In this document: piece by piece, positions 15,381-62,860 of the stretch
Layout: every line of letters starts with the position of its first letter
How positions within the stretch are numbered: the first letter of the stretch is position 1
Origin: Candidatus Dadabacteria bacterium
GTDB lineage: Bacteria > Desulfobacterota_D > UBA1144 > Nemesobacterales > Nemesobacteraceae
Assembly: GCA_026705445.1 (NCBI GenBank)
Contig: JAPPAR010000001.1
Span: 8,030 to 72,029, forward strand
Direction: 5' to 3'
Length of the DNA: 64,000 nucleotides
The notes under the pieces: model-generated
The model's database searches: none
What the model was told of the DNA's origin: nothing
What the model saw: the letters and a program-made list of their open reading frames with translations, nothing else
Program-made: the position numbers and the translations under genes

Positions 15381-16400
15381 TTACTCCTCCTCAGATTCTT
15401 TGGTGTCCTTCAAGAAGTTGAGGAACTTACTTACCATGTTGTAGGAACCTATATATATGGGGGTTCTCTGGTGAAGTTCCGTCGGCTGAATGTCAAGAGT
15501 CCTTTCCGTTCCGCTTGACGACGCTCCTCCAGCCTGTTCCACGATGAAGGCCATCGGGTTGCACTCGTAGAGAAGCCTGAGTTTTCCGTTGGGAGAATCC
15601 GAGGTTTTCGGATAAAGAAATATTCCTCCCTTGAGCAGGTTCCTGTGTATATCTGCTACCATGGACCCGACGTACCGAAGCGATAGCCTGGAATTGCCGT
15701 CTCCGTCTCTGCAGTGATCGAGATACTTCTTTACCCTGTCGGGGAATTTCGAATAGTTATAGTAGTTGACTGAGAAGATGTTGCCGTGGCTCGGGATCTT
15801 TATGTTCGGATGGGAGAGGCAGAACTCTCCTATCGAGGGGTCAAGGGTAAACCCGTTTACTCCGTGGCCGGTAGTGTACACCAGCATGGTCGAAGAACCG
15901 TATATTATGTATCCGGCAGCCGTCTGGGTCTTGCCCGGCTGCAGAAAATCTTCCTTGAGACACGGGGAAAACATCTTTGACGTTCTTCTATATACGGAGA
16001 ATATGGTTCCAACCGATACGTTCACGTCTATGTTGGAGGATCCGTCGAGAGGGTCGATGGCTATTACGTATTTTGAGTTTCTCGAGTTCTCGTCGGAAAA
16101 TGCTATGAAATCCTCGTTCTCCTCAGACGCTACCCCCGCGCATTCTCCGCCATGTTCAAGTGCGGTCAGAAACTTTTCGTTCGCGTAGGAATCAAGCTTT
16201 CTTACCTCTTCTCCCTGAATGTTTACCTGGCCCGTTTTGCCCAGAATATCCGCGACCAGACCGGCTTTGTTTACTTCCCTGTGGACTATTTTCGCTGCGA
16301 ATCCTATATCCCGAAGCAGCCTGGAGAGCTCCCCGGTGGAATAGGGAAATTCATACTGATTTCTTATGATGAATTCGTCAAGAGTAGTTATCGAAACCAT
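15381..16400 (-). CDS. fbp: Fructose-1,6-bisphosphatase class 1
   Basis: 339 aa. The N-terminal [25 protein letters not shown] pattern and metal-binding DPLDGSSN are typical of class I FBPase. Confidence 0.85.
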
Positions 16401-16623
16401 GTCGCGAGTTGTTCTAGAGAAAGGCCATGGAGAAAAGGCTCTTCAAATAAGAGTTTAACTGAATCAGCACGGTTAATTAAGAGCGGGATAACAACTTGGG
16501 CAGTTTATTACGAATTGGAATTAATAATTCTCGCTTTACAACTATTTTGGTAGCATATAACATTTGCTCCGTGAGGATTCAAAAGCCTTTCGAGGTTCCT
16601 AGTCTGAGAAAAGGCAGAATGTC

Positions 16624-17973
16624 ATGAGGAGTATTACGCTTAAAAATTTCCGATGTTTCCGCGCAGAGCAGACAGCTAAGTTGGCTCCACTGACTCTGCT
16701 AGTAGGTGAGAATAGTACCGGTAAGACATCTTTTATGGCAATGATTCGGGCTCTTTGGGATGTTGCCTATCGGTATCAGATACCGGATTTCAAGGAACCT
16801 CCATATGATCTTGGCAGTTTTGACGAGATTGCGTATAACAGAGGTGCTAGGGGCGGTCAGGTAGATACGTTTGAGGCGGGGTTTGATCCTAACAATCTTA
16901 TTGTGTTTAAAAATGATGCGACTGATAAGGTTCGTCCCTATCATTTAAATATTACTTTTGCAAAAGATGGAACAGTTCCAGTTCCAGTGCGGAGACGGAT
17001 GACTTGTGAGGATTTGTGGATCGAAGAATTCTTGGAACCGAAAAACCGCGATTTCCGATTTCGCGTCGGTACCGAAAAGGGGTCGTGGGAGTTTAAGGCC
17101 AGTTTGGACTTGGGTAGTCCTTCGGATTTTGCCCATTACGCAATAGCCCCTTTCTTTTATACACTTCCAGAGGAAGTAGAAGGGCTTAGTCCACTGGAAG
17201 GTTCCGAAAAGATTACTAAGAAAGATCTGGAAAGACTCCGTGAATTTTGGGGTTTTTGCTTCACGGGCTTGTTCAGAAAGGCTGATCGTCCATACGCAAG
17301 TGCACCGGTTCGTTCCGAACCAAAGCGCACTTACGATCCGGCTCGTCTCTCGTCAGACCCCGAGGGCGATTATGTTCCAATGTATTTGGCCAACGCATAT
17401 GCCCGCCAGAGGAGGGTGTGGAACTATCTTAAAAACGAGCTTGAGAGATTTGGACAAGCTTCGGGACTTTTTGACGAAATCACTGTTAAGCATCTTGGAA
17501 AAACTTTAGGTTCACCTTTTCAGTTACAGGTGAGAAAATTTGCGGGCAGGAGGAAAGGGCCGTGGAAAAACTTGGTTGATGTGGGTTATGGTATAAGTCA
17601 GGTTTTACCTGTGGTGACAGAATTGTTTCGCCAAGATGCAGCGCCGTTGGTACTGTTACAGCAGCCGGAAGTGCACCTTCACCCCAGTGCTCAGGCTGCT
17701 CTGGGAACCTTATTCTGCCAAATTGCCGTACGAAGTTCTCAGCTAGTTGTTGAGACGCACAGTGACTACATAGTTGACCGCGTACGCATGGAGGTTCGCG
17801 ACAACAATATTCCGTTGAAGCCGGAGGATGTTTCAATTCTGTTTTTTGAGCGTAAGGAGTTAGATGTTCATATTCACTCTCTTCGGCTAGATGAAGAGGG
17901 AAATATCTTAGACGTTCCACCGAACTACAGAAATTTTTTCATGGAAGAGAGCCGGAGACTTTGGGGTCTATAA
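16624..17973 (+). CDS. OLD/ABC-type AAA family ATPase (AAA_21/DUF3696-like architecture)
   Basis: Walker A GENSTGKTS is at residues 28-36. The C-terminal Walker-B/D-loop region reads LLQQPEVHLHP, followed by an ETHSDYIVD H-loop. The local GC is low, about 45%. Confidence 0.7.
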   Translation: MRSITLKNFRCFRAEQTAKLAPLTLLVGENSTGKTSFMAMIRALWDVAYRYQIPDFKEPPYDLGSFDEIAYNRGARGGQVDTFEAGFDPNNLIVFKNDATDKVRPYHLNITFAKDGTVPVPVRRRMTCEDLWIEEFLEPKNRDFRFRVGTEKGSWEFKASLDLGSPSDFAHYAIAPFFYTLPEEVEGLSPLEGSEKITKKDLERLREFWGFCFTGLFRKADRPYASAPVRSEPKRTYDPARLSSDPEGDYVPMYLANAYARQRRVWNYLKNELERFGQASGLFDEITVKHLGKTLGSPFQLQVRKFAGRRKGPWKNLVDVGYGISQVLPVVTELFRQDAAPLVLLQQPEVHLHPSAQAALGTLFCQIAVRSSQLVVETHSDYIVDRVRMEVRDNNIPLKPEDVSILFFERKELDVHIHSLRLDEEGNILDVPPNYRNFFMEESRRLWGL

Positions 17974-17976
17974 GAA

Positions 17977-18459
17977 ATGGGTGCGATTTTGGATGCAAAC
18001 GTTGCCCATGAGGTGTTCGGTGGTTGCAATCGTCCCGAGGCAGGCAGACGATTCTTTAATCAGATCAACAGGGGGGAAGGTATTCTGGTGGCTGGAGGCA
18101 AGTTGCTTAAGGAACTCTTAAGTACATCAGTCAGGAGAAATATAGATGAAGCATTTCGTTCGGGGAAAATTAAGAAGATAAATGATCGGAAAATTGATGC
18201 ATTGACGAAGAAGCTTCAAGATCAAGGAGGATTCAAATCGAATGACCCCCATGTTCTTGTTTTGGCTCAAGTCAGCGGAGCCCGACTTCTCTATTCAAAC
18301 GATAGTGATCTGCAGAAAGATTTCGGGAATAAGGAGTTGGTTGATCGACCTCGGGGTAAAGTATATTCCACAAAGCACGGTGGCGGGAAATTCCAAAGAA
18401 GTCATAAGATACTTCTCCTAGAACTTAAGAACGGGGATCTGTGCGGATCTCCTCAGTAA
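17977..18459 (+). CDS. Small PIN-like (possibly Toprim-like) nuclease-domain protein, partner of the upstream ATPase
   Basis: 160 aa. It has the pattern N-terminal hydrophobic-Asp (AILDANV), ...NDPHVLVLAQVSGARLLYSNDSDL, resembling PIN motifs (D ... D.hhhA.A ... T.D.D). The start is 3 nt after the ATPase stop. Confidence 0.45.
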   Translation: MGAILDANVAHEVFGGCNRPEAGRRFFNQINRGEGILVAGGKLLKELLSTSVRRNIDEAFRSGKIKKINDRKIDALTKKLQDQGGFKSNDPHVLVLAQVSGARLLYSNDSDLQKDFGNKELVDRPRGKVYSTKHGGGKFQRSHKILLLELKNGDLCGSPQ

Positions 18460-18583
18460 TTGTACCTTTCGTGCTGTCTGGCTACTTGATCGGATAGTCT
18501 GAATTTCTTAAGAATATATTCAGAGTTGCCGTGAAGGTTTCTCAATCTCTAATTGGTGGAATAAAGTCGCTATTCATCCTCGC

Positions 18584-19120
18584 TCACTCGAAGTCTGACC
18601 CCTGTTTTCCTTCCCGCAGTTCCCGGAGTTTTTCCAGGCTCTCGTCAAGATCATCCGGCGCCTGCTCCCTGATAATTTGATATCCGCTGATGACTTTGGG
18701 AGCCAGAACGGAATTCTTGATGAAAGGAGCATCCTCATCCACAAACTGCTTTACCCCGGTTACCAGAAGGTAGCAGAGCAGTAGACCGACTATAAAGCCC
18801 ATCGCCCCGCCGAGGAGATGGTTAATCCATCCCATCTTGACTTTTTCCAGCAGGTCCGTCAGGAAATGGGAAAGATAATGTATGAGCATGTACGCAAGGG
18901 AGGCTACGATCAGAAATCCCAGAATGTCGGCGATTCTCGGTTCGGCGATAATGTTTTTTTCAAGCAGAATAGCCCCCAGCGGTCCATAGAAGAAGAAGCC
19001 CAGCGCCACTCCCCCTATTATGGCGGTCAGTGAGAAAAACTGCTTTATAAGGCCTGACCTGAGCCCACCCCCGAAACAGGCCAAGATCATGAATAAGAGT
19101 AAGATATCAAACAGGTTCAA
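18584..19120 (-). CDS. cvpA: CvpA family membrane protein
   Basis: 178 aa with four TM segments. The N-terminus MNLFDILLLFMILACFGGGLRSG matches the CvpA family. Confidence 0.75.
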   Translation of the reverse strand: MNLFDILLLFMILACFGGGLRSGLIKQFFSLTAIIGGVALGFFFYGPLGAILLEKNIIAEPRIADILGFLIVASLAYMLIHYLSHFLTDLLEKVKMGWINHLLGGAMGFIVGLLLCYLLVTGVKQFVDEDAPFIKNSVLAPKVISGYQIIREQAPDDLDESLEKLRELREGKQGSDFE

Positions 19121-19213
19121 ATCGGTTTACCGTTACGCTCTTGCGGATTGTTTTACGAAAAATTCCCTTTAAAAAAGGAAACTTACATCAGGTTAACGGT
19201 GGTGTCCAGTCTT

Positions 19214-57671: not shown

Positions 57672-59825
57672 GTGGCTTCTTCGGTAACGGACATTTCGAG
57701 CAAGAGGTTCCCGCTTCGCCCTTCTGAGCGGTATATCAACAGGGAGCTTTCCTGGCTTGATTTCAATCTGCGGGTTTTGGAGACGGCGGCCAGCAAGAAT
57801 GTTCCGCTTCTTGAGAGGGTGCGCTTTCTCTCCATCTCCGCAAGCAATCTCGATGAGTTCTACATGGTAAGGGTAGCGGGTCTTGCGGGACAGGTTATGG
57901 AAGGTGTGACCGACCGCAGCAAAGACGGCCTTACACCCTCCCAGTAGCTCGAAGCCATAAGGGGGAAGGTCCGTTCCCTGCTTGACAGCCAGTACGAGTG
58001 CGAAAAGGAACTGTTTTCCCTCTGCAAGAAGGCGGGGATCAAGATCGTAACTCCCGAGAAACTTGACCGCTCGGGCGCGAAGTGGCTCTCCGAGTGGTTC
58101 TCGAATAAGCTTTTCCCGGTTCTTACCCCGCTTGCCATAGACCCGGCGCATCCGTTCCCCTTCATACAGAGTGAGCGCCTTGTATGCGCCGTGCAGCTAA
58201 GCCGCGCCGAGGACGGAAAGCGCATGAAGGGTCTTATACTGCTGCCTTCCCAGGTGGAGCGCTTCATAGAGGTTCCGGGAGGAAAAAAAGTACAGTTTGT
58301 TCCGATCGAGAAGGTTATCGAGCACAACATGAAATTCCTTTTCCCGGGTTTTGAGGTTGAGGACAACGGAATCTTCCAGATCACCCGCGACAGCCTTCTT
58401 GAGATAGACGAGGACGCGGAAGACCTGGTAGAGACGTTTGAGACGGCGCTTAAGCAGCAGCGCAGGGGAGGCTCCGTGATCAGGGTTGACGTCAACGCGG
58501 ATATGCCGGATGCGATAGTTGACTTCATAATGGAGAAGATTGAGGCCCACGACGCGCATTTTTTCAGGATCAAGGGGATGCTCGGGCTTGAAAGCGTGAA
58601 ACAGATAATAATCGATGAGCGAAGCGACCTTCTTTACAAGCGCATGAATATCCGCTACCCCGAGAGGGTAAGGGAATTCGGGGGCGACGTAATAGCCGCC
58701 ATACAGCAGAAGGATTTCGTCGTTCACCACCCTTACGAGAGTTTCGACGTCGTCGTTGAGTTCCTGAAGCAGGCCGCGGCGGACCCGGCGGTCGTCGCGA
58801 TCAAGCAGACGCTTTACCGCACCTCGGAAGACTCCCCGATAGTGAAAAGGCTCATAGAGGCCGCCGAGACCGGAAAATCCGTAACTGCCATGGTGGAGCT
58901 AAAGGCCCGTTTCGATGAGGAGGCCAACATTCGCTGGGCGCACGATCTCGAGGACGCGGGGGTTCAGGTCGTGTACGGATTCATCGATCTTAAGACCCAC
59001 GCCAAGGTGTCTCTTGTGGTGAGAAGGGAGGGTTCTGACATCCGCACCTACACCCACTATGGCACCGGCAACTATCACCCCGTAAACGCCAAGATATATA
59101 CTGACCTCAGCTACTTCACGGCCGACGAGGCGCTGGGTCGCGACGCCGCCAAGCTTTTTAACTACATGACCGGCTACGCCACTCCTAAGAAGATGGAGAG
59201 GATATTCTTCTCTCCCGTAACGATGCGCCCGAAGGTGCTTGAATTGATAAGGGACGAGGTAGACCACGCGAAGGCCGGCCGTCCCGCGGTTATATGGGCC
59301 AAGATGAACTCCCTTGTGGACAGCAAGATAATAGACGCGCTTTACGCGGCGAGCCGCGCGGGGGTGCGCGTCGAGCTTTTCGTTCGGGGAATATGCTGCC
59401 TGCGGCCCGGGATGCCTGGGCTCTCCGAGAACATAAGGGTGAAGAGCATCGTGGGACGTTTCCTCGAGCACAGCAGGGTCATCTGCTTCGGCGCGGGGGA
59501 AGGGCTTCCCTCTAATGCCTGCAAGGTCTTCATCTCGTCCGCAGACTGGATGCCCCGCAATCTTGACCGCAGGGTGGAGTCGCTTGTTCCGATCGAAAAC
59601 GCCACCGTGAAAAAGCAGCTCGTTGAGCAGGTGATGGTCGCTAACTTAAACGATGTAGCTAACAGCTGGGAAATGCTTCCCGACGGTTCTTTCCGCAAGC
59701 TTAAAAGCGATGCGGACAGCTTCTCGGCTCACAAGTACTTTATGACTAACCCCAGTCTTTCGGGACGAGGCAAGGCGCTTGCCGAATCCAGGCCGGTAAT
59801 GCCGGCTGAGTTTGTGCAGGAATAA
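57672..59825 (+). pseudogene. ppk: Polyphosphate kinase 1 interrupted by an in-frame TAG at 57945-57947 (codon 92); the frame reopens and continues to 59825
   Basis: The N-terminal segment [18 protein letters not shown]...[20 protein letters not shown] and the downstream ORF are collinear with PPK1 in the same frame. The TAG is read directly in the sequence (TPSQ*LEAIRGKV). Confidence 0.6.
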
Positions 59826-60024
59826 TTCATGGCAGAGATTCTTTTCCCCGCCTCACCCTTCGGCAAAAACGGAAGTATGCGTGTATTATCTTAAGTTCAG
59901 GAGATAAAGCTGGCAGTGTGTAGTGATTAAAAATCAAGCAATCTTTTACAAAATTTGAAACCACGATTAAAAAAAGGATAATTGTTATCAAGTTATTTGA
60001 GTGATTCAGGAGGAGATTTAAAAC

Positions 60025-60243
60025 ATGGACCCCGAGAAACAACTTAAGTCCGAGGATAAGAAGAAAGATATAGATGATCAGTCGTTTGAACATCTGCATC
60101 GTAATTTGTTTGACCATCCGAACGACGAAGAATGGAGTGCGACTCGCTCACTGGCCCAACCTTCATTTCTCAAGCAGATTAACAGCCACGGTAGTGCCCA
60201 CAGCCAACCAATGAAGGTTTCCCCAACCACTTCCGAACAATAA
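60025..60243 (+). CDS. Small acidic, His-containing hypothetical protein, translationally coupled (TAATG) to the downstream peptidase
   Basis: 72-aa ORF in a low-GC insertion. Its stop overlaps the next start by 1 nt. Confidence 0.35.
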   Translation: MDPEKQLKSEDKKKDIDDQSFEHLHRNLFDHPNDEEWSATRSLAQPSFLKQINSHGSAHSQPMKVSPTTSEQ

Positions 60244-61151
60244 TGCCTAACTGGTCAGAAGTACTGAACGAGATCAGGAATCTTGACGCTAAACTAATAT
60301 CCCAGTCAGCGCCTGATCAGGTTCGTCGCAAATATCTTAAAAACCTGTTTGAAAAAACCGGTCGCAATACTGTTGCCTACTATTCGGGCTGGCTGTCAAA
60401 GCCCAATATAGAAGGCATTCATATTAACGACGAAGATAAGAACGGCTTTATGATGGCTGTTCATGAGCTTGACCGTTCAGTTGGACTTGACTTAATTCTG
60501 CATACCCCGGGTGGAGAGCTTCACGCAACGGAATCAATTATTCATTATCTTCACCAGATGTTTAATGACGACATTCGCGTTATCGTACCACAGATAGCCA
60601 TGTCGGGTGGTACCCTTATTGCGTGTTCCAGCAAGCAGATACTGATGGGCGCTCATTCAAACCTGGGTCCGATTGATCCACAGTTACGGGGAGTGCCCGC
60701 ATATGGTGTAATTGAGGAATTTCGAACTGCTGCGGCACAGATTAAGGAAGACCCCAGCAAAGTCCATGTTTGGAATCCAATTCTCTCCAAGTATCATCCG
60801 ACATTTCTCAGCCAATGCAAAAACGCAATTGAACATAGCAGCGAAGTTGCCCAAAACTACCTAGAAAGAGTTATGTTTAAGGGTGTTGCTGACAGGAGGA
60901 AGATTGCCGAGAAAATTGTCAAAGGTCTGACTGATTACTCAGGCAACAAATCCCATGCCAGGCACATTCATATCGATGAATGCAAAGCTCTTGGATTAAA
61001 AGTTTCGGAGTTTGAATCCGATCAAGAGCTGCAGGAACTTGTTTTAACCGTGCATCATGCGTTTATCCATACCCTTATGAATACACCATCGGTTAAAATC
61101 ATCGAAAATCACCTTGGTCGAGCTTTGATCAAGACTTTCGTATCAGGGTAG
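60243..61151 (+). CDS. ClpP/SppA-class serine peptidase (SDH 'serine dehydrogenase proteinase'-like, S49-like)
   Basis: LHTPGGELHA (compare ClpP/SppA xSPGG) and a catalytic-Ser context IAMSGGTLIA (compare SppA AASGGY). 302 aa with no TM segment. GC about 45%. Confidence 0.55.
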   Translation: MPNWSEVLNEIRNLDAKLISQSAPDQVRRKYLKNLFEKTGRNTVAYYSGWLSKPNIEGIHINDEDKNGFMMAVHELDRSVGLDLILHTPGGELHATESIIHYLHQMFNDDIRVIVPQIAMSGGTLIACSSKQILMGAHSNLGPIDPQLRGVPAYGVIEEFRTAAAQIKEDPSKVHVWNPILSKYHPTFLSQCKNAIEHSSEVAQNYLERVMFKGVADRRKIAEKIVKGLTDYSGNKSHARHIHIDECKALGLKVSEFESDQELQELVLTVHHAFIHTLMNTPSVKIIENHLGRALIKTFVSG

Positions 61152-61327
61152 CAATAGCCGTTATGGCTAGACTGCTTCAAATAGAGAGTTTTTCCGACAT
61201 TACGACAGGTCTAGGACGGATGAAGCTGCTTAATGCTATGGACAATCTGAATACCTGGAAACGAGGTGACAACCGAAAAATCCTTGCTTTTTCTATCTGC
61301 GCTTGTTGAGCAAGCCGGGAACAATCC

Positions 61328-62860
61328 ATGACAGAAATCTCTCCTCCCGCCACGCCGTTCGGCAAGGCCGGAACCGTGGCGGTAATTGACGTGGGATCGA
61401 ATTCCATACGTCTTGTGATCTACAAGGGCCCTAGGCGCGCCCCGCTTCCGATACTTGATGAGAAGGTTCCCTGCGGCTTGGGGCGCGGGATGGATTCTCA
61501 GGGCAGGATGTCTCCGCAGAGCATGGATCTCGCCCTGCGAACTGTAAGCCGCTTTGTCGATATCGCGCGGTCCATGAGGGTTTCCGGCGGAATAAAGGCG
61601 GTTGCCACCGCTGCGGTGAGAAACGCCGCAAATGGCCCCGATTTCAAAAAGGCCGTTGAGCAGCAATGCGGGATTTCTCTTCGGGTGCTCTCCGGCATGG
61701 ACGAGGCTAGGCTTTCTGCTCTTGGCACTCTCTGCGCTATCCCTGACGCTGACGGCGTAATGGGGGACATAGGCGGCGGAAGCCTTGAATTGGTGGAGAT
61801 CTGCGAGGGGGAAATAGGAAACCACGCTACATTGCCGCTTGGCACGATACCGCTTCTTGAAAGCGGTCTGAGTCCCGTGAAAGCCCGCAAGAAACTGATT
61901 GCCCCCCTCCTTGACGAGCTTCCCTGGCTTGAGAACGCGAAAAAGAAGACCTTCTACGCCGTCGGGGGTTCGTGGAGAGCCTTGGCTAAAAAACACATGG
62001 AGTCTGATGATTACCCGCTTCGAATAGTTCACGGCTACAGTCTTTCCAGATCAAGGGCAGTTGATATGGTCCGGGAGATAGCCGAGATGTCTTCAGGTTC
62101 GCTTCAGGACCTCTGGATTCTGGGGCGAAACAGGGTGGAGTCTGCTCCTTACGCCGCCACGCTTATGAAGAGTCTTTTAAAAAAAACGGACGTTAACAAC
62201 CTTACGTTCTGCACGTACGGGCTTCGGGAGGGATGCATATACGACGATCTTTCCCCGGAGCAGCGTTCTCTGGATCCTCTGGTTGTCATGTGTGAGGAGA
62301 TTGCCCTTAAGATGGGAAGATCCATTGAGGAGGGCAAGGCTTTCTGCAGGTGGATAGATCTGGCGATTCCTGATAAATACTCTAGGGACCCGAGGTTGAG
62401 ACTCGCTGCATGCCATCTCTCGGACATAGGAATTTCCGAGCATCCGGAGTACCGCGCGGAGCAGGTGTTTTTGAGGATACTGCGGATGCCGTTTGTGGGA
62501 ATTGCTCATCCGGAGAGGGTGATGGTAGCTCTGTCGGTGGCCTCAAGGCACGCAGCGATCGGAAACTTGGTCCGTCGCTGGGAAGTCTCGGATTTTCTTT
62601 CCGGAGACGATATTGAAGAAGCTAGGGTTACGGGGCTTGCGCTTCGCCTGGCCTACACGGTTTCAGGAGGAGTGGCGCGGATTCTTGAGAGCACTAGGCT
62701 TGAGAGGACCGGAGAAAAACTTGTTTTACATATGCCTGACCAGATTCCACATCCGGAAACTGTAGGTAGGCGTCTGGGCGCCCTTGCCAAGGCCGTCGGA
62801 TGCGATTACGAGACGATTGCAGGGGAGGTGTCTTTGGTTAGAACAGCAAGATTTATGTAA
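61328..62860 (+). CDS. ppx: Exopolyphosphatase (Ppx/GppA family)
   Basis: N-terminal AVIDVGSNSIRLVIY and the ASKHA fold typical of Ppx/GppA. 510 aa. Confidence 0.85.
   Translation: MTEISPPATPFGKAGTVAVIDVGSNSIRLVIYKGPRRAPLPILDEKVPCGLGRGMDSQGRMSPQSMDLALRTVSRFVDIARSMRVSGGIKAVATAAVRNAANGPDFKKAVEQQCGISLRVLSGMDEARLSALGTLCAIPDADGVMGDIGGGSLELVEICEGEIGNHATLPLGTIPLLESGLSPVKARKKLIAPLLDELPWLENAKKKTFYAVGGSWRALAKKHMESDDYPLRIVHGYSLSRSRAVDMVREIAEMSSGSLQDLWILGRNRVESAPYAATLMKSLLKKTDVNNLTFCTYGLREGCIYDDLSPEQRSLDPLVVMCEEIALKMGRSIEEGKAFCRWIDLAIPDKYSRDPRLRLAACHLSDIGISEHPEYRAEQVFLRILRMPFVGIAHPERVMVALSVASRHAAIGNLVRRWEVSDFLSGDDIEEARVTGLALRLAYTVSGGVARILESTRLERTGEKLVLHMPDQIPHPETVGRRLGALAKAVGCDYETIAGEVSLVRTARFM

Follow-up and report, generated by a model that had tools for sequence, protein, structure and literature searches.

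A two-gene cassette between fbp and cvpA

The window analysed here is a stretch of 64,000 nucleotides from Candidatus Dadabacteria bacterium (GenBank assembly GCA_026705445.1, contig JAPPAR010000001.1, positions 8,030 to 72,029 of the forward strand), and the element in question is a cassette of two genes that separates fbp from cvpA. Gene 1 encodes an OLD-type ABC ATPase, and gene 2, whose start lies 3 nt beyond the gene 1 stop, encodes a small PIN protein (Table 1). Upstream the cassette is bordered by fbp, which is on the opposite strand, and downstream by the stop of the convergent cvpA. An initial annotation, made from the letters of the window alone, had described the pair as a defence-like module. 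The two open reading frames, their 3-nt spacing and the motifs quoted for them are all present, with LLQQPEVHLHP at residues 344-354 and ETHSDY at residues 377-382 of gene 1, and AILDANV and SNDSDL in gene 2.

The same annotation described a low-GC cassette with AT-rich spacers between flanking genes of about 57% GC. The cassette (45.9% GC) and its spacers are as described, but the flanking genes are not, with fbp at 48.8% and cvpA at 49.9%. The whole window has 52.0% GC, so that the cassette differs by about six points from the window and by three to four points from its immediate neighbours; its GC content falls into the lowest 2% of same-size windows in the 64 kb (mean 52.2, sd 2.6). A comparison with 65 full-length related loci, drawn from many phyla, found 64 in which the cassette is richer in AT than the flanking DNA, with a mean difference of 7.6 points; the low GC content is thus not peculiar to the source genome.

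Table 1. Coordinates of the cassette, its motifs and its surroundings in the window
Feature	Coordinates	Strand	Remarks
Gene 1	16624..17973	+	449 aa, ATG; OLD-type ABC ATPase, DUF3696 C-terminal tail; proposed sensor/regulator
Walker A / P-loop GENSTGKTS, G28-S36	16705..16731	+	G28, N30, S31, G33, K34, T35, S36 invariant 75/75
Hypervariable central segment, aa 76-225	16849..17298	+	mean top-residue frequency 0.28-0.54
Signature-motif equivalent G321-Y-G-I-S-Q326	17584..17601	+	G321, Y322, G323, S325, Q326 invariant; GxG variant as in NsnB
Walker B strand L342-V-L-L-Q346-Q347-P-E349	17647..17670	+	L344-L-Q-Q-P-E349 and H351-L-H-P invariant
H-loop / switch E377-T-H379-S-D381	17752..17766	+	E377, H379, D381 invariant 75/75; T378 73/75
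DUF3696 C-terminal tail, aa 398-449	17815..17970	+	top-residue frequency 0.74-0.83
Gene 2	17977..18459	+	160 aa, ATG; stand-alone VapC-like PIN nuclease, predicted effector
PIN catalytic Asp 1, D6	17992..17994	+	invariant in A1; at least 90% of A3
PIN catalytic Glu, E46	18112..18114	+	invariant in A1; at least 90% of A3
PIN catalytic Asp 3, D90, S-[DN]-D-P-H motif	18244..18246	+	invariant in A1 and A3
PIN catalytic Asp 4, D109, Y-S-N-D motif	18301..18303	+	invariant in A1 and A3
Inserted block, approximate extent	16604..18570	+	absent from the cvpA-fbp intergenic region of six related genomes
fbp-side intergenic region, up to inserted block	16401..16603	.	39.5% GC measured over 16401-16623
3' spacer	18460..18583	.	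40.3% GC; ends before convergent cvpA stop
fbp	15381..16400	-	FBPase 1.8e-73
cvpA	18584..19120	-	Colicin_V 6.3e-28

The ATPase

Gene 1 matches the Pfam families AAA_15 (6e-22, 79.2 bits against a cutoff of 32.1) and AAA_21 (4.2e-18, 66.9 bits against 27) above their curated cutoffs, and DUF3696 marginally (residues 398-432, 1.1e-4, 22.7 bits against 22). The DUF3696 assignment is backed by the full-length match of gene 1 to the PADLOC model of Menshen NsnB (3.3e-44), the best model found, and by 66 relatives on plasmids, whose fully aligned members are annotated as DUF3696 proteins. The early description of an OLD/ABC-type ATPase with a DUF3696-like tail is therefore supported. The next PADLOC models are PDC-M55A (2e-30) and the HEC-03 ATPase (2e-27), which like NsnB belong to the DUF3696-tailed clade, followed by the weaker AriA (1.6e-24), GajA (about 1e-13) and PtuA (about 1e-10), matches that reflect the common OLD-type ATPase of PARIS, Gabija and Septu. 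A search of NCBIfam found nothing beyond N-terminal P-loop matches far under the cutoffs. The nearest solved structure is that of the Thermus OLD nuclease (Ts OLD, 6p74, 1e-10).

Conservation was scored over 75 aligned family members. Strong constraint acts on the motifs of the nucleotide site and on the DUF3696 tail, and the variability is concentrated in an insert: the top-residue frequency is about 0.83 in residues 1-75 and 226-449 and drops over residues 76-225, which are also the least conserved part between syntenic alleles (53-66% nucleotide identity). This segment lies between the P-loop helix and a conserved R230/R235 block, the place of Insert 1 in ABC ATPases. Following an argument in the preprint by Payne et al. 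(bioRxiv 10.1101/2024.01.29.577857), we propose that it may form the surface that recognises the trigger. The DUF3696 tail is proposed as the putative docking site of the PIN protein, by analogy with AlphaFold 3 models of NsnB4-NsnC2 (PMC12065111).

The PIN protein

For gene 2 the initial annotation had favoured a PIN fold and left room for a Toprim reading. The PIN reading stood in a fold search, in which the protein is structurally closest to VapC toxins, and in the conservation of a D-E-D-D set of catalytic residues; the same fold search ruled out the Toprim alternative. The structure was predicted with AlphaFold2 first from 32 sequences, which gave an unusable model (predicted local distance difference test score 54.6), and the prediction was rerun with 121 sequences. 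The alignments A1 and A3 of Table 1 comprise 32 and 121 sequences, respectively. In Pfam, gene 2 itself scores below the cutoff for PF01850 (18.1 bits against 23.6), and 30 of 32 relatives match that family at E <= 0.01, the best at 4e-7. Searches of Pfam and PADLOC gave no Toprim, HNH or DUF4276 match, and a search of PDB sequences with the PIN profile gave nothing significant, the best being a VapC at E 0.4.

Besides the catalytic residues, H92, D115, H143 and C156 are invariant in the PIN alignments, and most family members carry a Cys at position 2. The protein has a C-terminal extension that is absent from ordinary VapC proteins; H92, H143 and C156, perhaps with Cys 2, could form a structural metal site there. 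Gene 2 is accordingly predicted to be a catalytically intact VapC-like PIN ribonuclease, whose substrate would be RNA.

Linkage and distribution of the two genes

The pairing of the two genes was followed from both sides. A scan anchored on the PIN gene covered one genome for each of 185,579 species and returned 449 matches encoding a gene 2 relative, a small and patchily distributed fraction; at every one of the best 80 of these 449, the ATPase gene directly precedes that of the PIN protein on the same strand, mostly with a 3-nt gap. A scan anchored on the ATPase covered metagenome relatives of 36-62% identity, on contigs with names of the JGI or GenBank metagenome type, and a PIN gene of the family adjoins downstream at all 76 loci with room for it, down to 36% identity. 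The two genes are therefore adjacent at 156 of 156 testable loci, and the linkage of gene 2 homologues to the ATPase on which the early description depended is consistent. No third gene is conserved beside the pair at the 80 and 76 loci; in neighbour clustering, the next largest cluster comprises 11 loci, in part by synteny. No DUF262 (NsnA-like) family occurs two or more times among 143 immediate neighbours.

The PIN family comprises 1,866 representatives after clustering at 50% identity (E <= 1e-3), nearly all of them stand-alone proteins of 145-175 aa. Its hosts belong to many phyla and include Latescibacterota, Binatia, Dehalococcoidia, Gemmatimonadota, Nitrospirota, Entotheonella and Ca. 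Spongiisociaceae, a list that resembles, in lineage names only, the sponge-symbiont phyla in PMC8163846. Pairs that are 92% identical occur between metagenome-assembled genomes labelled Gemmatimonadetes and Latescibacteria. Together with the patchy distribution and the low GC content relative to the flanks, these cross-phylum pairs argue for a horizontal spread of the cassette. The family is thus large and sharply defined by its pairing, and censuses of defence systems probably miss it because its effector is not detected by the PADLOC hidden Markov models; the gap would be most serious in the uncultivated lineages that typify sponge symbionts and soil or sediment, among which the family is common.

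Interrupted ATPase genes were also observed. At L047:5259-7991 the gene is split by an ISL3-family transposase (DDE_Tnp_ISL3, 4.7e-74), and at L003:6643-7994 and L007:6595-7969 it is frameshifted, for which an assembly error is also possible.

The cvpA-fbp site in related Dadabacteria

The pair occupies the same site in six related genomes (L001-L006), of which L001, a metagenome-assembled genome of Candidatus Dadabacteria, is 99% identical at the protein level. The flanking proteins of L003-L006 mostly share 89-96% identity with those of the window (range 72-96%, lowest for cvpA and rimI), and the alleles of the cassette are only 63-69% (ATPase) and 58-69% (PIN) identical. In summary, cassette alleles at 58-69% identity sit between flanks at 90-99%. 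At the nucleotide level, the identity to syntenic relatives drops from about 90-95% to 53-80% exactly over positions 16400-18600. Alleles have been swapped at this site. L002 is a mosaic over window positions 17800-19200, where the ATPase is 98% identical, the PIN protein 84% and cvpA 85%, after which the identity is again about 93%; this pattern suggests a recombination breakpoint near the junction of gene 1 and gene 2.

Empty and altered sites were located through cvpA homologues and their contexts. In six genomes cvpA lies directly beside fbp with otherwise identical synteny. In one genome a 394-aa protein with Fic_N and Fic domains is encoded in place of the cassette, between cvpA and fbp (L174:4764-5948). 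In another the cassette has decayed (L172:4552-6015): it retains an intact ATPase of 453 aa with 62% identity, and of the PIN protein only residues 76-107 or so are left, with in-frame stops. The effector was thus the first of the two to be lost. The junction of cvpA and fbp has the look of a minor hotspot for genes of toxins or conflict systems, and it clearly illustrates how a small genome can carry an accessory hotspot at a single site. The filled, empty, decayed and Fic-bearing states, together with the fast divergence of the alleles, fit a mobile and fast-evolving conflict module, and in this respect the defence-like behaviour assumed at the outset is found at the locus.

The comparison with the empty sites also delimits the inserted block, which consists of a 20-nt leader, the two genes and some 110 nt on the 3' side. 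Over positions 16401-16481 the window shares 94% identity with cassette-free relatives; homology to the empty sites ends at 16481 and picks up again at about 18568-18573, the final 11-16 nt of the 3' spacer being common to the empty sites. Positions 16482-16570 are AT-rich, have no counterpart in the cassette-free relatives and contain a single promoter-like site (TTTACA-17-TAACAT, 16535-16563). Between about 16570 and 16603 the window has the motif TTCAAAAG..TTTCGrGGTTCCTAG in common with the empty sites, and it is this short motif that suggests a start of the block near 16604. No target-site duplication, terminal inverted repeat, flanking repeat or att-like site was found above chance at the ends of the block.

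The Gln-Gln Walker B motif

At the Walker B strand of gene 1 (LVLLQQPE), both acidic positions of the canonical hhhhDE are occupied by Gln. Alignment across homologues shows that this is a lasting feature: Q346, Q347, P348 and E349 are invariant in all 75 close relatives, and of 80 distant metagenomic relatives 76 read QQPE and two QEPE, so that the first Gln is kept in 78. In HMMER alignments Q346-Q347 align with the E-E of Ts OLD (IIEEPE) and the D-E of PtuA (LIDEIE). The exchange of Glu for Gln at the catalytic position of Walker B is the classical substitution that blocks hydrolysis in ABC ATPases. One PtuA chain in the PDB reads LIDQIE, which we take to be an engineered trap mutant.

The initial annotation considered the Gln pair unusual, and this is correct for one of the two residues. 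Five of five distant DUF3696 ATPases sampled from plasmids (of Aeromonas, Azotobacter, Bacillus, Rhodococcus and Vibrio) read EQPE, and in NsnB EN replaces DE (PMC12065111). An amide at the position of the catalytic Glu is the norm of the DUF3696 clade, including an Aeromonas pair scored as a true HEC-03 by the PADLOC models, and the family-specific feature is the first Gln only, at the position of the Mg-coordinating Asp. ATP binding with poor hydrolysis is plausible but would then hold for the DUF3696 clade as a whole. The two QE members, L122 and L132, are metagenome loci reading LLQEPEVHLHP; they keep the first Gln and have the canonical Glu at the position of the catalytic base, which makes them natural comparators for ATPase assays. 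The authors of the HEC-03 study openly pose the question, in their preprint (bioRxiv 10.1101/2024.01.29.577857), whether ATP binding or ATP hydrolysis is decisive in OLD-type defence ATPases. A natural Gln-Gln Walker B offers a ready-made test of this question.

Relationship to known systems

The closest described architecture is that of HEC-03 (Hma-embedded candidate 03), which pairs an ABC ATPase with a VapC-like PIN protein, reduces plaquing, requires both genes and is toxic when induced, according to Payne et al. (bioRxiv 10.1101/2024.01.29.577857). HEC-03 is catalogued in PADLOC-DB v2, where the labels are reversed relative to the preprint: "HEC-03B" (458 positions) is the ATPase and "HEC-03A" (159 positions) the PIN protein. 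The initial annotation had presented the combination of ATPase and PIN nuclease as a departure from known systems. This view has to be abandoned, since HEC-03 is already such a pair and Menshen NsnC contains an inactive PIN domain. The kind of system, an ABC ATPase with a PIN protein, is already known; what is new is an uncatalogued distant relative of HEC-03. The proposal of an uncharacterised module thus half fails: the architecture matches a catalogued system and the sequences do not.

The likeness to HEC-03 extends to a tightly packed or overlapping two-gene operon in which the ABC ATPase precedes a small (about 160-180 aa) VapC-like PIN protein, to the DUF3696 tail, and to the Gln at the catalytic-Glu position. 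The Aeromonas plasmid pair scores as a true HEC-03 (ATPase 7e-134, PIN 2e-24); its ATPase has a DUF3696 tail, reads MEQPEIHLHP and shares 25% identity with gene 1 across 96% of its length. Against the HEC-03 ATPase model (PDLC04148), gene 1 scores 2.1e-27 in two partial stretches and the distant family member L127 6.9e-37 over the full length. Gene 2 does not match the HEC-03 PIN model (PDLC04147) at E <= 1, nor do four of five distant PIN proteins of the family, the fifth giving a faint match (0.0054). The Walker B motif is EQPE in HEC-03 and QQPE in gene 1, and the family described here is neither embedded in Hma nor found on plasmids. A further difference is that the two plasmid HEC-03-type pairs are followed by an RNA ligase gene, and the cassette of the window is not.

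These RNA ligase family genes lie directly after the PIN gene on the Aeromonas and Azotobacter plasmids (L081:6871-7572 and L083:4870-5562); the Aeromonas copy, the sole one scanned, matches PF09414 at 2.2e-33, and the Azotobacter pair is called HEC-03-type by its near-identity to the tested Aeromonas pair. The arrangement hints at a pairing of RNA damage and repair; the available text of Payne et al. makes no mention of an RNA ligase beside HEC-03.

Menshen (NsnA-NsnB-NsnC; Millman et al. 2022, analysed in PMC12065111) is the second point of comparison. NsnB belongs to the same DUF3696-tailed OLD-ABC clade and likewise has a non-canonical Walker B, an Arg replacing the Q-loop Gln and a GxG signature, and in both cases the next gene downstream encodes a partner with a PIN fold. 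In a predicted NsnB4:NsnC2 assembly, the DUF3696 tail of NsnB binds the PIN-like N-domain of NsnC, which is inactive (PMC12065111). However, NsnA (ParB-DUF262 with ParBDB) is encoded directly upstream in Menshen, where the window has fbp on the other strand; NsnC combines its inactive PIN with a C-terminal nuclease or toxin domain, whereas gene 2 is a PIN protein only, with D6, E46, D90 and D109 conserved; and the Walker B residues are EN there and QQ here.

PARIS (AriA-AriB), Septu (PtuA-PtuB) and Gabija (GajA-GajB) are similar in that an OLD-type ABC ATPase with AAA_15/21 controls a nuclease effector. Their effectors are Toprim, HNH or fused Toprim nucleases, the ATPases have no DUF3696 tail, and the solved relatives of this type have an acidic dyad (IIEEPE in OLD, LIDEIE in PtuA) in contrast to the Gln pair. 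The partner in the cassette is a PIN protein without a Toprim, HNH or DUF4276 match, unlike the Toprim, HNH or RloB-type nuclease, as partner or fusion, that marks Gabija, PARIS, Septu and AbiL. VapBC differs in having a VapB-type antitoxin, which is missing here, the upstream partner being an ABC ATPase of 449 aa, and gene 2 differs from VapC in its conserved C-terminal extension with the invariant H143 and C156.

The cassette would work like HEC-03 and like the NsnB-NsnC core of Menshen. Within the DUF3696 ATPase clade we regard it as a sister of HEC-03 that is not yet catalogued, and it appears to be a sequence member of neither system. The family would be a third branch of the DUF3696 ATPase group, beside Menshen and HEC-03. 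It suggests that evolution may have run in simple steps, with an active PIN effector first and an inactive PIN adaptor equipped with a new effector later.

Function of the cassette

We interpret the cassette as a conflict module that is complete with two genes and most likely defends against phages or other mobile elements in the manner of abortive infection, and assign this reading a probability of about 0.62. In the mechanism that we propose, the ATPase would oligomerise and bind nucleotide at the Gln-Gln site, probably without turnover, dock the PIN protein through its conserved DUF3696 tail and keep it inactive. The hypervariable insert (residues 76-225) would recognise a cue of infection by a phage or mobile element, and nucleotide occupancy of the Gln-Gln site would act as a switch and not as a fuel-burning step. 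Once triggered, the PIN protein would be released or activated and cleave RNA, leading to growth arrest. Precedents for the control of a nuclease by such an ATPase are PARIS, through sequestration and release, and Septu (PMC12065111); models of sequestration and release, as in PARIS, or of nucleotide-dependent control serve as the template for the mechanism proposed here.

A more far-reaching version, which we regard as doubtful and offer tentatively, combines two suggestions. The first is that the ATPase is a natural Glu-to-Gln trap that binds ATP and never hydrolyses it, functioning as an occupancy or energy-charge switch, so that the PIN ribonuclease would be freed by a phage cue at the hypervariable insert or by a drop in ATP. 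The second is that a catalytic stand-alone PIN protein on a DUF3696 tail represents the ancestral state, from which the inactive-PIN adaptor of Menshen NsnC would be derived through recruitment of new C-terminal effectors.

Several observations weigh against a defence function. A scan of the viral contigs of IMG/VR returned no relatives, and a tblastn search with the PIN protein against plasmids gave no match. The immediate neighbours at 74 loci, counted without a background control, are mostly metabolic genes, among which defence-like genes form a minority (five AAA_15/21, four DUF4143/PDC-S01 and two to three methylases); the neighbours in the 64-kb window are all housekeeping genes, so that the cassette is not a classic resident of a defence island. 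The homology to a validated system is remote, since gene 2 matches no PADLOC model at E <= 1 and the ATPase has no specific model; aligned with hhalign, the gene 2 family and the HEC-03 PIN alignment reach a probability of 9%, over the N-terminal motifs only. With the Walker B Asp replaced by Gln, Mg-ATP binding itself is uncertain. Neither a promoter nor a terminator of the cassette stands out above chance: two promoter-like matches were found with 2.9 expected, and a scan of the 3' spacer found no terminator-like site.

An alternative explanation is that the pair is a selfish addiction module resembling a toxin-antitoxin system, in which a VapC-type PIN toxin is neutralised by the ATPase as an unconventional antitoxin, with no dedicated anti-phage role. 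The structural proximity of the PIN protein to VapC toxins, the tight coupling of the genes, and their patchy, horizontally spread and low-GC occurrence are all consistent with such a module, as is the decayed locus, where the effector was lost first and the ATPase left intact. HEC-03 is toxic on induction, according to the preprint (bioRxiv 10.1101/2024.01.29.577857), and an enrichment of toxin-antitoxin systems has been reported for sponge symbionts (PMC8163846). However, the gene order and the size of the partner, with the 449-aa ATPase upstream, are unlike those of VapB-VapC, and a hypervariable insert beside a constrained nucleotide site suits a sensor better than a simple neutraliser. 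Moreover, the nearest tested architecture, HEC-03, protects against phage and needs both genes for this (same source), and the pair was not found on plasmids, where addiction modules are most useful. We therefore consider an addiction module rather unlikely as the whole explanation, though it and the defence function are not mutually exclusive.

It is improbable that the pair is part of a larger system, forming its core, and that a third component such as an NsnA-like ParB/DUF262 DNA sensor is encoded elsewhere in the genome. The full-length match to NsnB as the best PADLOC model of the ATPase would agree with this possibility, as would the predicted binding of a PIN-like domain by NsnB through DUF3696, and the published survey of Menshen was anchored on NsnA and would miss unlinked versions. 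However, neither a third gene nor a recurring DUF262 family is kept beside the pair at the loci surveyed above, the PIN protein retains its D-E-D-D residues and has no C-terminal effector domain, unlike NsnC, and HEC-03 functions as two genes, according to the preprint. A housekeeping role in RNA processing, quality control or repair could be suggested by the mostly metabolic neighbours and by the shared site in seven related Dadabacteria-type genomes, but it is very improbable and already largely refuted by the presence/absence polymorphism, with six close relatives empty at the site, one carrying a Fic gene and one a decayed copy, three more loci with an ATPase interrupted by frameshifts or an ISL3 insertion, alleles that diverge far faster than their flanks, and an occurrence in only a small fraction of species.

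Other features of the region

A second low-GC patch of the window, at positions 59500-62300 (about 45%), shows no sign of a defence cassette and contains ordinary genes, namely ppk, a gene for an SDH-type ClpP-like serine protease, and ppx. In a cassette-free relative, a gene resembling IS605 OrfB/TnpB (OrfB_IS605, Cas12f1-like_TNB) lies between meaB and rimI (L170:1200-2420); it is absent from the window. Two genomes have a small open reading frame with a lipoprotein-like signal (…LLLSAAACG…) and no Pfam match between ispB and cvpA (L172:3276-3605 and L173:3431-3901), a gap that in the window is filled by a spacer of 130 nt only.

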